A stretch of DNA of 63,680 nt, counting the filler, from Reticulomyxa filosa (Eukaryota > Protista > Foraminifera): the NCBI GenBank assembly GCA_000512085.1. It is 27 parts of 27 records of this genome, joined end to end, with 100 filler letters (N's around TTAATTAATTAA, not from the genome) between each part and the next. Parts side by side here need not be neighbours in the genome. Positions count along the whole stretch, not along the records: positions 59,449 to 61,348 come from ASPP01045336.1; positions 61,449 to 63,680 come from ASPP01019013.1; 25 more parts are not named here. The stretch is one strand, 5' to 3'. The notes below the pieces were generated by a model that saw only the letters and a list, made by a program, of their open reading frames with translations, had not been told where the DNA came from and ran no database searches. Both the position numbers and the translations under genes were made by a program. Below, in pieces: positions 5,834 through 63,680 of this stretch. Every line of letters starts with the position of its first letter. Position 1 is the first letter of the stretch.

Positions 5834-8207
5834 NNNNNNNNNNNNNNNNNNNNNNNNNNNNNNNNNNNNNNNNNNNNTTAATTAATTAANNNNNNNNNNN
5901 NNNNNNNNNNNNNNNNNNNNNNNNNNNNNNNNNAAAAAAAAACTATTTGACACTACTTTGAGTATGGAAGGAAAAAGAAAAACAAAAAAAAACTTTCTTT
6001 TTTGGTTGTTACAACAAAGAATGTGTTTCTTTTAGCAAATGAATAATCAAAATTGAGACACTAACTTGCTGTCCTTACGTAAAATCGAAACAACACAGTG
6101 AAATTGTGTTAAATGAACATGGAAACACTGAATTTGTGTGTTTAACGATAGAAAGGAATTTGAGATTCTAAAACAAAACAATACGAAATATTCAATTGTG
6201 AAAAATGGCATGCGTATATGTCTTAATTTCAGTTATTATTTAACAGATGTCTTTTTTAATTTGACATTGCAAAATCACTTAAATTTTTTTCGGAAAATAA
6301 AATAAAATAAGCGAGTGAAGTAATGAAAAAAACATCGAACATATCACAGTAAAGAGAAGAATAATATGTATTTATTTTTATAGTAGTGTAATGTGAACGC
6401 ACATCAATTAATTTGACAACAGCAGTGCTGTTGATATACTAAGAATTGTACTCATTATTATGCAGGTTGCAAAATGCTTAAAAGTTACGTTGGTGCATTT
6501 CATAAATGGAAAAAAACTTATAACGCAATATGAAATGTTGAAAGAAAACTTGGATCAGTAAGAAAAGGTAGTATTTCATACAGAATCAAACGATGTATAG
6601 TTATATGGATTGTTGCAGATAAATGTGAAATTAAATCGTATGATGTACAAAATGAAGATAACGTCGTTGTTTCCAGACAAATAATCAGAATAGCTATTAA
6701 AACTATAGTGATTAGTTATAACAAAGAAAAAGAAGAAGCACTTATATGATACTATAAAAAACTTAGATTAGAATTTGCAAGATCGCATAAAGATTGGACA
6801 GAAGCAGACTGGAGAATTATATTGTTATATGACATGCCAAGATGAATATACATTACAGTGACAGTGTTCGATATGTTTGAAAAAGGCATGAATACTATTC
6901 GGATGGAAGAACAATACATATATATAAGATTCAGTAGATGATTAATTACGATTTGGACTTGTATTAGGTTTCGATAGTTGTCTGGACATGCAGAGTTGAT
7001 TGATGCTTGCTTCTTCATTATATCATGATATACTTGGCGGTGAAATACTTGATAGTGTATAGTCTTGCTTATGCGACACATATGTTGGATTTTTCAGCGA
7101 ATAATGCGTCATGTCACAAATCGATATCTACGCAAAGATTGTTTGAATAGAATGAAATAAATGTAATTGAATTTCATGCAAAAAATACCGATCTAAATCA
7201 TATTAAGAACATATTGTTGATCGTAAAGTGTAAAGTTTATCATAAATGACATTTTTCTACAAATGAAGATCTTTTTGATGATTTTGTTAAGTAACTTTTA
7301 AATAAACTGATTTTTCGGTTGTGTTCACTAACTAATATGTTGTTGTCAGCCAAAGTACAATATTAAAATAATATTACAAAAATTTAAACAACTTCTGAAA
7401 ATGAGTCAAAAAATCAGTTTGACCTTAAATATTTGTATTTTTTTAGTCAAGGATAATATGCGAAGTTGCTATAAAAAAAGCTAAATCAGATTTAAACCCA
7501 TAAATCATATCAAATAAAAAAATTGTTACGATCTAAAAAAAAAAATTTTGATTCATGCAACATGTGATATCTCAATCATAAACACTAAAAACACACAAAA
7601 AACAAACAATATTTTCAAAAATCAAACACTTCACTAAAAAAATCAAAAAAATAAAAGTAAATCATTTTTAAAATGATGACACAAATAGTCACTCGCACAA
7701 AAAAAAACACCAACTGAAAACATAACAAACACAATTCTGAAATCAAACGTTTCTAGATGAATAGATAGCGAGCATTACTTAATTTAACATGAACATATAA
7801 AGTGTCTATTTTTTTAATTAATTTTTTTAGTGTTGCAAAGTTTTACTGTTTATTGAATTATCTTTGTAATTTTTTGTTGAATTGGAAAAGGTTATTACTT
7901 TTTATTTGGTTTTTTTTGTAATTTAGCATTTTAATTTAACACAAATCTGTTTATCAATTGCAAAAAATTCTTTAATGAAATATGGATATCGGGATGCACA
8001 AAATTTGATATTACAATATGAAAATGTGCTTGTGTGTTTATTTAGAGTTGAATGTGTTTTAGTTTGTATGTAAATTGTGGTGATAAAATTTTTTTTGAAT
8101 GAAATGATTCAGAAATATTTCACATAATAAAAAATAAAACGATTTTTATTAACAAAATTATGAATTGACACACTAATGTAATTTTTGAGCACTTGGTGCT
8201 TACCTTT

Positions 8208-43651: not shown

Positions 43652-44715
43652 ACCACCGCGCCGTCGCGCCGGCTGGCGGTAAAAACCTTTGTCAGCCCGA
43701 TCAGCAACGGTGTCATCCGCGAGGCGATGCTGCGCGAGTTCAAGCGCGGCGGCCAGGTGTTCTTTCCTGCACAACGAGGTGGACACCATCGAGAACATGC
43801 GCGAAAAGCTGGCCGAGCTGGTGCCGGAGGCGCGCATCGGCGTGGCGCACGGCCAGTTGCGCGAGCGTGAGCTGGAACAGGTAATGTGCGACTTCCTGCA
43901 AGTACGCTTTAACGTGCTGCTGTGCTCCACCATCATCGAAACCGGCATCGACATCCCCAACGCCAACACTATCCTGATCAACCGTGCCGACAAGTTCGGC
44001 CTGGCCCAGCTGCACCAGCTGCGCGGCCGGGTTGGCCGCAGCCACCACCAGGCTTACGCCTACCTGCTGACCGGTGAAGGCATGACCCGCGACGCGCAGA
44101 AGCGACTGGAGGCGATCCAGGCCTCCGAAGAACTGGGCGCCGGCTTCTACCTGGCCATGCACGACCTGGAAATCCGTGGCGCCGGCGAAGTGCTGGGCAG
44201 GGGCAATCCGGCGAGATGCAGGAAGTCGGCTTCAGCCTGTTTACCGAAATGCTGAAGCAAGCGGTACGCGACCTCAAAAAGGGCCGCGAGCCGGACCTGG
44301 ACGCGCCGCTGGGCGTGACCACCGAAATCAACCTGCACAGCCCGGCGCTGCTGCCGGACGAGTACTGCCCCGGTGTGCACGAGCGGCTGGTGATCTACAA
44401 GCGGCTGGCCACCTGCGACAGCGAAGACGAGATCGACACCATCCACGAAGAGCTGATCGATCGCTTCGGCCTGCCGCCGCAAACCGTGAAGACGCTGATC
44501 GAAAGCCATCGGCTGAGGTTGGCCGCACGCGAGATGGGTATCCAGAAGCTGGACGCCAGCGAGGTGGCCATCCAGCTTACCTTCGTCCCCACCCCCCCGA
44601 TCGACCCGATGAAGATCATCCAGCTGATCCAGAGCAAGCGGAACTCAAGCTGGCGGGCCAGGACAAGCTGCGGGTGAAAGCCCGATACCGGAAGTAGCCA
44701 TGCGCATCGTGCGGG
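43652..44715 (+). CDS. mfd: Transcription-repair coupling factor Mfd, helicase C-terminus and TRCF domain, bacterial, partial with frameshifts
   Basis: [64 protein letters not shown]. Confidence 0.95.
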
Positions 44716-55476: not shown

Positions 55477-55559
55477 CCGCACTGATGCAGCTGGTCAACG
55501 AACGCCGCCTGCCGGCGCCACTGCTGGGGCCACTGGAGCGCGACAAGACAGACCACTGA
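55477..55559 (+). CDS. 3' end of an unidentified bacterial gene convergent with adk
   Basis: GC-rich frame ALMQLVNERRLPAPLLGPLERDKTDH*, ending just before a terminator. Confidence 0.5.
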
Positions 55560-55574
55560 GCCCGTATCGGCCAC

Positions 55575-55605
55575 AAAAAAGCCTGCCAGTGTGGCAGGCT
55601 TTTTT
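55575..55605. terminator. Bidirectional intrinsic terminator 1
   Basis: AAAAAA-GCCTGCCA-GTG-TGGCAGGC-TTTTTT. Confidence 0.88.
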
Positions 55606-55624
55606 ATTTAGCAGGCAGGCAGCT

Positions 55625-55663
55625 GCAAACGAAAAAAGCGGGGTTGCCCCCGCTTTTGTTTGC
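55625..55663. terminator. Intrinsic terminator 2, downstream of adk
   Basis: AAAAAAGCGGGG-TTGC-CCCCGCTTTT hairpin with A/T tails. Confidence 0.8.
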
Positions 55664-55676
55664 CGTTTGGCTACGC

Positions 55677-56336
<660 letters not shown>

Positions 56337-56345
56337 TTACTCCCA

Positions 56346-56492
56346 TCATTCACTTGTTGTGTTATCGGAAAGCTTGGCCGCCACGATGGCGCGCACACGG
56401 GCCAGGTCTTCCGGTGTGTCCACACCGGCCGGCGGCGCGTCTGCCACGCATTCGACAGCAATATCGAAACCGTGCCACAGCATGCGCAGCTG
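56346..56492 (-). CDS. kdsB: CMP-KDO synthetase (3-deoxy-manno-octulosonate cytidylyltransferase), C-terminus
   Basis: [11 protein letters not shown]...[12 protein letters not shown]; kdsB-adk adjacency is common in Betaproteobacteria. Confidence 0.88.
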
Positions 56493-61300: not shown

Positions 61301-61974
61301 CAACCACAACAAATTCAACAACCATCTGCTGTTTCGTTTGTATATACGNNNNNNNNNNNNNNNNNNNNNNNNNNNNNNNNNNNNNNNNNNNNTTAATTAA
61401 TTAANNNNNNNNNNNNNNNNNNNNNNNNNNNNNNNNNNNNNNNNNNNNATCACGTAAGCTATAATGAACTGCAATAAAAGAATATAATTTTTTTCAAAAA
61501 CTAAGAAAGATACAAGCCTAATTTTTTTTGAAAGATATCTGCGTGACTTTGGAAATCTGTCGGATATTTGATCGTGATACAATCATTGCTATCAGTATAA
61601 AGCTTTTAGTCATATGGTATTTTTAATTGTGCCAATAAATTGTGTAGTCTTTGTAACCAAGACTGTGTTCAACATTGTATTCAGCATTTTGAAGTTATTG
61701 TTATAATTGATTAGTCAACCCTTAACAATGTTATCAATGTGTAACTTTACAAGTAGTTACAGAATATTAAATACATAAAAAATCTATGAAAAAAGTTATA
61801 TATTATCGAATGAATTTCGAAATTTGAAGTTGTTGAAAGCAAGAACCTGTTTTTGTATTATGTTTTTAACTAATTGTCACTGAATGACAAAGCAGTAAGT
61901 GGTTAAACATATTTACATTCTCCAAATGCAAAAGCTTAAAAAAAAAATAGTTAGTTGTTTTATTTCATTTAATA

Positions 61975-63525
61975 TTAGTCTTCGCTTTCAAAAACTGAAT
62001 CAGGTATTTCACAGCTGTTGCTTTTTTCTGGTTCGTTCTCACTAATATCCCTTATATCATCATCTATTTTAATGTATCTTATTCTTCTTTTTATTGAAGG
62101 GTCATTTGTGAAAATCCTGTTATTACTTGTAAACACTCTCGGTAACCCTTTTTTTATTTCGACATGACCATGTTTTACGTTGACTGCTGTAGTTTCCTCA
62201 ACGTCTACTATATGGATTTGCTCTTCTCTTTTCCAATACGAAAAGTTCATATCATCAAACACAATACCATCATATGAATTATCCAATTTTTTTAACTGGT
62301 CAATATGACGTACTAATAGTGGATTTTTAAAAAGCGATAGTGCAAATTGTGTTTTTCCAGTATTAGTCTTTCCATGTAGCCATAACACATGTTTTGAGCG
62401 GTTCCAATTTAATACATTATTTACATTTTTAAATTTATAATTTTTAATTATTTCATCATTACTTTTTGCTAATCTTTTTATACTTTGTTCGATGCGTAAA
62501 CTATCTCTTATGTAATCCCTAGCCAAGTTTGCATCATTTATAATTATATTAATTGCACTGTTTACATCACCTTCTATCGCTAATTTTACTGCAGCTACTG
62601 CTGGTGCCGTTATAGCAAAATTATATATGTTTGTTATGTAATTTTTTTCCTTGGTGCAGTATTTTTTGACTGCTGTTAAGCTACGACAACCTTGATAATT
62701 TCCATGAAATCCATCCAAGTCTAGTCGATGTGCTGAACGTATATCCACTTTCTTTTTGCAATTAATATAGCAATGAAGATGTCTTCCTTTTTGTATATGA
62801 TTTTCCACAGCAATCAAATATTCATTGATTTGAAGTTTTGTTTCCAATATTGCAAGCGCTTCTTCCGGTTGTAACGTACACTGTGGGTATGTTAGAAACA
62901 AATTTTTTGCTTGTAGGCGAAAATTTTGGTTTTCGACTTCTTGTTCAATTTGTTCGTCAATTTGTTCTTCGCCACTTTTATCAATGTCACTGTGTTCATT
63001 GTTACTTGGTACATCTTCTTGTTGCATCACACTTAAACTTCGTTTTTCTTTTTTTTTATTTTTCAAGCTTGCGTCATGTAAATCACTTGTTGCAATAATT
63101 ATTTTATTTATTGATGAATCAGTTTTTTTTTCAAATTCGTCAAAATCACTATTTTCCAAAATTTTGGATTTTAATCGCAAAGATCGTTTCTTTTTTTGTT
63201 TGTGATCACTTTTTTGATCATCACCTTGTTTGTCATTTTGGTTGTCATTTTGTGTGGCACCTTGTTCGTCGCTTTTTGCGTCACTTAGTAAGTCACTTTG
63301 TGAGTTACATTGTTCGTCGCTTTGTGAGTCACTTAGTACGTTGTCTTCCTTGTCGCTTAGTACGTCATTTTCTACCTCACTTTGTACGTCACTTCGTACG
63401 TCACTTTGTAAATCACTTTCCACGATATTTTGTCTGTCACTTTGTACACCATTTTGTACAAACCTTTGTTTGTCACTTTGTACTTTACATTGTGCAGGAC
63501 ATTGTTTGTAATCACGTAATTCCAT
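61975..63525 (-). CDS. rep: CRESS-DNA (geminivirus/genomovirus-like) replication initiator Rep, HUH endonuclease + SF3 helicase, with a ~200-aa N-terminal repeat extension
   Basis: FRLQAKNLFLTYPQC (motif I), HLHCYI (II), GRS-like RLDLDGFHGNYQGCRS, KKYCTKE (III), GKTNTGKT (Walker A), IVFDD (Walker B), VKHG (B'), VFTSN (C), IKRR (Arg finger); intronless, uninterrupted; first ATG at 63525. Confidence 0.93.
   Translation of the reverse strand: MELRDYKQCPAQCKVQSDKQRFVQNGVQSDRQNIVESDLQSDVRSDVQSEVENDVLSDKEDNVLSDSQSDEQCNSQSDLLSDAKSDEQGATQNDNQNDKQGDDQKSDHKQKKKRSLRLKSKILENSDFDEFEKKTDSSINKIIIATSDLHDASLKNKKKEKRSLSVMQQEDVPSNNEHSDIDKSGEEQIDEQIEQEVENQNFRLQAKNLFLTYPQCTLQPEEALAILETKLQINEYLIAVENHIQKGRHLHCYINCKKKVDIRSAHRLDLDGFHGNYQGCRSLTAVKKYCTKEKNYITNIYNFAITAPAVAAVKLAIEGDVNSAINIIINDANLARDYIRDSLRIEQSIKRLAKSNDEIIKNYKFKNVNNVLNWNRSKHVLWLHGKTNTGKTQFALSLFKNPLLVRHIDQLKKLDNSYDGIVFDDMNFSYWKREEQIHIVDVEETTAVNVKHGHVEIKKGLPRVFTSNNRIFTNDPSIKRRIRYIKIDDDIRDISENEPEKSNSCEIPDSVFESED
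63210..63490 (-). repeat. Degenerate 12-bp coding tandem repeat (x-Q-S-D tetrapeptide) in the Rep N-terminal arm
   Basis: GTCACTTTG/GTCGCTTTG recurring with 12-nt period; protein VQSD..LQSD VRSD VQSE VEND VLSD... Confidence 0.85.
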
Positions 63526-63636
63526 TTTCAAAAGTGTCACTAAGAGTTTAGCAAATCACAAAAAAAAGTAACAAAAAATTTGTTTTTCATTATACAAATA
63601 CATACACGATGGTAATGACAATGGCGATGTATAAAA

Positions 63637-63680
63637 GATATTGAGATGACAAGATGATATTGAGATGACAAGATGATATT
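63637..63680. repeat. 19-bp perfect direct repeat (2 copies plus a partial third), cut by the window end
   Basis: GATATTGAGATGACAAGAT at 63637-63655 and 63656-63674, then GATATT. Confidence 0.9.

Follow-up and report, generated by a model that had tools for sequence, protein, structure and literature searches.

Our data indicate that an intact Rep gene lies on a small stand-alone contig of the foraminiferan Reticulomyxa filosa (GenBank assembly GCA_000512085.1). Its predicted product is a Repensiviricetes-type Rep, placed within the group of CRESSV6 viruses (now largely Geplanaviridae) and Pyropia pulchra-plasmid-like elements. We tentatively read this gene as a chromosomal (endogenised) copy of a capsid-less or capsid-losing rolling-circle element of that group in the foraminiferan and not as a virus genome, a reading to which we give somewhat less than an even chance. 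The sequence of the Rep has been published before, and probably the gene has as well, as a nuclear one. New in this analysis are a 199-aa N-terminal extension that is partly made of 12-bp repeats and the absence of a canonical origin.

The stretch of DNA analyzed here, referred to as the window, is 63,680 nucleotides long and consists of 27 contigs of 1.0-6.3 kb each, joined via N-TTAATTAATTAA-N linkers. The median contig in the R. filosa assembly is 1.9 kb, and a contig of 2.2 kb is thus normal, so absent flanks are expected whether the element is chromosomal or free. The Rep contig begins at one end with a 19-bp tandem repeat, followed by approximately 110 bp, the ATG, approximately 20 12-bp repeats, an acidic and basic linker, the 317-aa Rep proper, and finally 526 bp of non-coding DNA. 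The features, in window coordinates, are as follows.

61449..63680, no strand: the entire contig, which stands alone; 2232 bp with GC 0.305, carrying a single gene and 681 bp of non-coding DNA
63637..63680, no strand: perfect 19-bp tandem repeat, 2.3 copies; the contig ends inside it
61975..63525, minus strand: 516-aa Rep ORF, uninterrupted from the ATG at 63525 to the stop at 61975
62929..63525, minus strand: predicted 199-aa N-terminal extension, acidic, low-complexity, with basic clusters KQKKKRSLR and KNKKKEKR
63220..63490, minus strand: approximately 19-23 degenerate 12-bp tandem repeats encoding S/N-D-x-Q tetrapeptides
62635..62922, minus strand: HUH endonuclease domain, Gemini_AL1, aa 202-297, Pfam E 8e-18, above cut-off
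62898-62881, minus strand: motif I, FLTYPQ, aa 210
62781-62773, minus strand: motif II, HLH, aa 249
62739-62683, minus strand: short GRS-like segment, aa 263-281
62661-62650, minus strand: motif III, YCTK, aa 289
62083..62373, minus strand: SF3 helicase motifs
62373-62350, minus strand: Walker A, GKTNTGKT, aa 385
62268-62245, minus strand: Walker B, IVFDD, aa 421-425
62139-62119, minus strand: motif C, VFTSNN, aa 464-469
62088-62083, minus strand: Arg finger, RR, aa 480-481, in the context SIKRRIR
61449..61974, no strand: 3' flank, non-coding, 526 bp, lacking a capsid gene, a canonical nonanucleotide and an Rfam match

The first-pass annotation had described an intronless 516-aa ORF with all rolling-circle and helicase motifs intact, and both claims held up: the frame runs uninterrupted, its nuclease domain is recognized by Gemini_AL1, and every Rep motif aligns with the seven nearest relatives shown. 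With motifs I-III in an HUH nuclease domain and an SF3 domain bearing Walker A and B along with motif C, the protein has the make-up of a CRESS-type Rep. The two arginines at positions 480-481 are invariant in 18 of 18 aligned sequences, while the GRS-like segment is approximately 7 residues shorter than that of the wheat dwarf virus Rep. The best relatives of solved structure, by sequence, are Rep domains. Furthermore, the Rep part as modelled by AlphaFold (pLDDT 83.8) overlays the Rep nuclease domains of TYLCV and wheat dwarf virus at 2.0-3.1 Å; a single-sequence fold of the full 516 aa gave a pLDDT of 34. From what is known of CRESS Reps, the HUH domain of the R. filosa Rep would be expected to use its motif III tyrosine to nick and rejoin single-stranded DNA at an origin, with the SF3 domain unwinding the DNA. 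We found no second copy of the Rep within the window, and at E<=1e-3 neither the Rep nor the ORFs of related loci gave window matches beyond the Rep domain.

Neither Pfam nor the Atlas gave a match to the N-terminal extension. Residues 103-167 remain open in a fraction of only 0.0008 of shuffles, the other two frames hold 6 and 10 stops, and the extension is thus probably coding. Initiation at a second methionine at aa 167 (63027) would give a Rep of 350 aa, a normal size among its relatives. None of 7995 candidates was a longer fused form of the Rep, a weak negative result. Two antisense ORFs, at 63111-63551 and 63230-63511, were rejected as genes since they are shadows of the 12-bp repeat.

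The proteins nearest to the Rep are environmental Reps with 46-52% identity, and the best viral contigs are 33-39% identical to it. A Rep phylogeny had been proposed as a check by the first-pass annotation. In our IQ-TREE tree of 61 rows, hand-picked from approximately 330 proteins plus related loci and rooted on two phytoplasma plasmid Reps, the R. filosa Rep is sister (94/81, a node not starred) to a clade of 10 environmental Reps (99/96). Five Reps from Smittium form their own clade (97/96), which is not the sister of the R. filosa Rep; the deeper forks are open, including the one that the R. filosa Rep shares with the Smittium Reps, apart from the phytoplasma outgroup. The phytoplasma plasmid Reps align to the nuclease domain only, with 29-42% identity, and the named eukaryote relatives of the Rep are fungal, red algal and oomycete. 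Two other sets of sequences were observed among the proteins and loci. P0137 and its cluster members P0333-P0337 represent a 967-aa protein with seven tandem HUH nuclease-like domains in which no helicase was seen, on contigs of up to 42.7 kb. The metagenome loci L080-L089, L082 and L083 among them, carry ORFs of approximately 475-520 aa with weak helicase-region matches to the Rep on contigs of up to 13.6 kb, and are probably bacterial pCRESS-type elements.

Group placement and motifs agree on the CRESSV6 / P. pulchra-like assignment. The P. pulchra-like group emerges from CRESSV6 and keeps both the GRS and the Arg finger, according to the accessible part of Kazlauskas 2019 (PMC6668415), and the R. 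filosa Rep keeps both. Since its Arg finger is retained in SIKRRIR, it is not a Rep of geminiviruses or genomoviruses proper, in which Asn replaces Arg (PMC6668415, same part); the Asn of Geminiviridae, Genomoviridae and pCRESS9 is lacking here. The geminivirus/genomovirus-related branch named by the first-pass annotation is right as to the Repensiviricetes type of the Rep, which belongs more precisely to the CRESSV6 / P. pulchra-like group. CRESSV6 viruses have the Rep type, the short GRS and the Arg finger in common with the R. filosa Rep but differ in carrying a capsid gene beside the Rep and often a TAATATTAC-type stem-loop, both of which the R. filosa contig lacks.

The protein has been printed before. 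In the accessible part of Kazlauskas 2019 (PMC6668415) it appears as 'PpulchraPlasmids|ETO15557.1', one of 12 rows that also include Smittium Reps and Pyropia plasmid Reps, and in the printed columns this row equals the Rep part residue for residue; there it is an alignment row only, with no mention of contig, extension, capsid or integration. The Craig Replitron preprint (10.1101/2022.12.15.520654) names Reticulomyxa filosa in the P. pulchra-like group, again in the portion available. Lee 2016 (PMC4814812, Fig. S9), as far as accessible, shows two sister R. filosa Reps with 100% support, labelled nucleus and given by GI numbers, and regards the R. filosa replicases as nuclear genes of virus-related plasmid origin. 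These come from the same organism and the same Rep group, and one of the two is likely the Rep analyzed here, while the pair implies that the assembly holds a second Rep. No junction evidence behind the 'nucleus' label was found in the accessible part of that paper. The three sources agree with the foraminiferan host that the first-pass annotation had guessed. R. filosa is not named in the text-readable supplements of PMC7493932 and PMC10193959, and the accessible parts of PMC7468197, PMC11128263, PMC13689118, PMC11945456 and PMC10821283 contain nothing further on the Rep element. Among papers outside subscription we found none that tests integration of the Rep or describes Rep-only circles in its sister clade.

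We asked whether the flanks of the Rep contain a capsid gene or an origin. The 526-bp flank holds no long frame in genetic codes 1, 4 and 6 (longest listed, 72 aa in table 4 and 101 aa in table 6), in keeping with the earlier claim that no capsid-sized ORF lies downstream. No jelly-roll capsid gene was found on the Rep contig and no capsid-like match elsewhere in the window. Our census of related loci comprised 32 with a full Rep, of which the 20 with end overlaps were counted and the 12 non-circular ones left out. In 19 of these 20 circles a second ORF, 200 aa or longer, sits -10 to 408 bp from the Rep stop; since this site is empty for 526 bp here, the contig is not an ordinary Rep+capsid genome. 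We consider it very improbable that the Rep comes from a capsid-encoding CRESS virus sequenced along with the foraminiferan, its genome being larger or in two parts and its capsid gene having failed to assemble together with the Rep. Such a virus would be in line with the 1.9-2.6 kb Rep+capsid circles of the wider group, some with sub-cut-off STNV- or geminivirus-like coat matches, and with an upstream view limited to 155 bp, but the contig is already larger than most Rep+capsid circles.

By strict scan, the Rep contig contains neither NANTATTAC nor an origin stem-loop, while the same scan found an origin stem-loop in 7 of 14 related loci. We did not accept the one 7-bp hairpin of the 3' flank (61740-61761) as an origin, since such a stem occurs in 229 of 300 shuffles, which is chance level. 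The 19-bp repeat has no other copies in the window at up to 3 mismatches and no exact match in viral contigs. Terminal repeats were not found on the Rep contig. A 9-bp match between the left end of the contig and 63511-63519 was taken as chance, as it is not co-linear with other matches.

We considered it somewhat unlikely, though a serious alternative to a chromosomal copy, that the contig represents a plasmid- or satellite-like circle of approximately 2.2-2.5 kb, capsid-less and Rep-only, that replicates freely in the foraminiferan and was broken by the assembly within the 19-bp array and with an origin that is non-canonical or lies in the gap. The intact frame and motifs suit a free circle. 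Against it, our circularity check found no overlap between the two ends of the 2232-bp contig, which do not join, and only one end lies within a tandem array. Precedents are the P. pulchra plasmids (PMC6668415) and HthCRESSV1 ('Mitodnaviridae', bioRxiv 10.64898/2026.04.22.720165), both from the accessible parts of their sources. HthCRESSV1, which we liken by description only, is a protist replicon of Gemini_AL1 type that lacks a capsid and has tandem repeats as well as a non-canonical origin; it differs in that it resides in the mitochondria of an oomycete, has been demonstrated to be episomal and carries a second, membrane-protein gene.

The sister clade (P0002-P0008 and P0258-P0260) also bears on a free circle. 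Eight of the ten sister Reps lie on contigs of 1.47-1.77 kb with 515-702 bp beside the Rep, a range into which the 681 bp of the R. filosa contig falls. None of 18 members of the capsid-bearing clade showed this range (Fisher p 1.4e-5), in a comparison whose size range was set after viewing the data, whose rows are related and in which the sizes of the capsid-bearing clade are known for part only. The remaining two sisters are on contigs of 2059 and 2198 bp, one cluster has a length of 2198 bp in one assembly but 1793 bp in a second one, and the sister Reps (313-355 aa) have no N-terminal extension, all of which weighs against a free circle; moreover, the sister contigs may owe their sizes to being transcripts, to having been truncated at repeats or to a small capsid. 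Scans of viral contigs with the R. filosa Rep, P0003, P0259 and P0117 as queries recovered no sister-clade DNA, and in profile scans for it the identity over the full Rep peaked at 39%, or at 35% in a scan that covered 12 of 64 parts.

A similar layout was found in L044:1-2077, a metagenome locus with a 355-aa Rep and no other ORF of at least 200 aa, the lone exception among the 20 circles. Near 461-477, L044 has TAGTATTAC within a small stem; upstream of the Rep, at 674-725, it carries four 11-bp repeats, and both of its ends lie in a 59-bp tandem array. As support for a free circle it is weakened by the absence of TAGTATTAC from the R. filosa contig and by its Rep being only 31% identical to that of R. 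filosa. L044 belongs to the wider assemblage and is more distant than the sisters.

The contig sizes hint that the sister Reps are candidate capsid-less Rep-only circles. On this basis the R. filosa contig could be a near-complete member, together with the 10 sisters, of an undescribed lineage of capsid-less Rep-only plasmids of approximately 1.5-2.3 kb in protists, its Rep having grown by a 12-bp array drawn into the frame; we regard this as unlikely. The 12-bp repeats would then perhaps be former Rep-binding repeats, and if such a lineage exists, the R. filosa contig would be its sole member with a named host.

We counted in favor of a chromosomal copy the second Rep reported in the assembly, the missing origin, the departure from an ordinary Rep+capsid circle, a composition that leans weakly toward the host, and the Smittium Reps, which lie on 3.5-33 kb contigs and in two cases have long N-termini. 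The five Smittium Reps are on contigs of 32733, 26640, 27457, 8687 and 3531 bp, and two of them have low-complexity N-terminal extensions of approximately 180-220 aa. Smittium Reps (OLY79389.1, OLY79699.1, OMJ21113.1 and PVV03168.1) belong to the same assemblage and likewise come from eukaryote assemblies. They differ from the R. filosa Rep in forming a separate clade and in lying mostly on long contigs, and their extensions look unrelated in sequence to that of R. filosa. Counted against a chromosomal copy were the absence of host DNA or a junction, a weak composition signal, and 681 bp of non-coding DNA that fits a near-complete Rep-only molecule. Indeed, no host gene, intron, host repeat or integration junction was seen on the Rep contig, and what it has in common with the rest of the window is low-complexity matches only.

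The composition of the Rep contig leans weakly toward the host. Its trinucleotide score of 0.148 is within the range of the 23 AT-rich window contigs and above 78 of 79 virus-like loci, and it has 2.2 A/T runs per kb, compared with medians of 2.1 in the AT-rich window contigs and 0.36 in the virus-like loci. The signal is weak: the contig correlates with the host centroid at 0.64, compared with a median of 0.81 for the host. Viruses drift toward the composition of their host.

If the copy is chromosomal, we propose that a small Rep-bearing circle that replicated in the host nucleus became integrated, its origin either having been lost or lying beyond the contig. The Rep gene would have acquired or retained a repeat-built N-terminal extension, as in the two Smittium copies on long contigs, and either a recent insertion or continued use would account for the intact frame. 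The first-pass annotation had set the intact Rep against decayed host paralogs nearby. That contrast fell away, since the neighbors are separate contigs with no physical link to the Rep, and the comparison is thus uninformative on selection or integration. Among those contigs are ones with genes of eukaryotes, namely PI3K, WD40, Kelch, an ion channel and GH47. On one window contig, positions 6500-6900 hold broken frames upstream of an intron-bearing gene, which we take to resemble a decayed Tc1/mariner transposase; the one stretch scanned had no Pfam match. The contig holding them is the nearest to the Rep contig by dinucleotide signature. An open frame of 818 codons at window 26635-29088 gave P-loop matches only, weak and below cut-off.

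Three window contigs are GC-rich (0.60-0.65; 34223-36499, 43652-44715 and 55477-56492), two of them with Mfd/TRCF and adenylate kinase, and are likely bacterial contamination of the assembly. Such a mixed assembly makes a foreign origin possible and counts against a chromosomal copy in the foraminiferan. If the element came from a different organism present in the culture, be it a food organism, a fungus, an alga or a protist other than the foraminiferan, and was inserted or episomal there, the fungal, red algal and oomycete affiliations of the named relatives would fit as well. Further, the contig is found in no independent sequencing run: among the three listed, an identical 264-bp piece occurs in two and not in the third, and all belong to one 'synthetic metagenome' study. 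No RNA run was listed as containing it, and the three runs do not bear on expression, habitat or junctions. We hold such an origin to be improbable, since the composition matches AT-rich eukaryotic contigs, no bacterial genome match covers the Rep (37 weak partial matches, 5 of 64 parts scanned) and the phytoplasma plasmid Reps match its nuclease domain only.

The least probable of the readings considered treats the Rep as a gene domesticated by the host, or as the transposase of a Rep+SF3 transposon present in multiple copies. The extension, open beyond chance, and the second Rep reported in the accessible part of Lee 2016 (PMC4814812) speak for it. Against it are the lack of introns, of terminal repeats and of a second window copy, a protein cluster of one member on one contig, and the absence of any other named rhizarian Rep from searches in which most matches are nameless. 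The domesticated Rep or transposon offered by the first-pass annotation is thus unsupported. Replitrons and Helitrons are eukaryotic mobile elements with HUH enzymes, as the R. filosa Rep carries an HUH domain. Replitrons, however, have a Rep without a fused helicase, while SF3 motifs are present here, and Helitrons combine Y2 with SF1, whereas the R. filosa Rep combines Y1 with SF3. Neither the contig nor the window showed a multi-copy pattern or short terminal direct repeats.

Nearly all that is known of CRESSV6-type viruses comes from metagenomes, and any copy tied to a cell therefore points to a host group. The R. filosa Rep points to Rhizaria, a link that is already in print, with no junction evidence found in the accessible parts of those sources. 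If the element is chromosomal, it would be one more endogenous Rep. If it is a Rep-only circle, it would be a natural small replicon for foraminifera, and if the sisters are Rep-only circles as well, they would together represent one more transition from virus to plasmid, in addition to the plasmids of red algae and the mitochondrial element of the oomycete. The remaining interest thus lies in the physical form of the element and in the hint of a capsid-less sister lineage.
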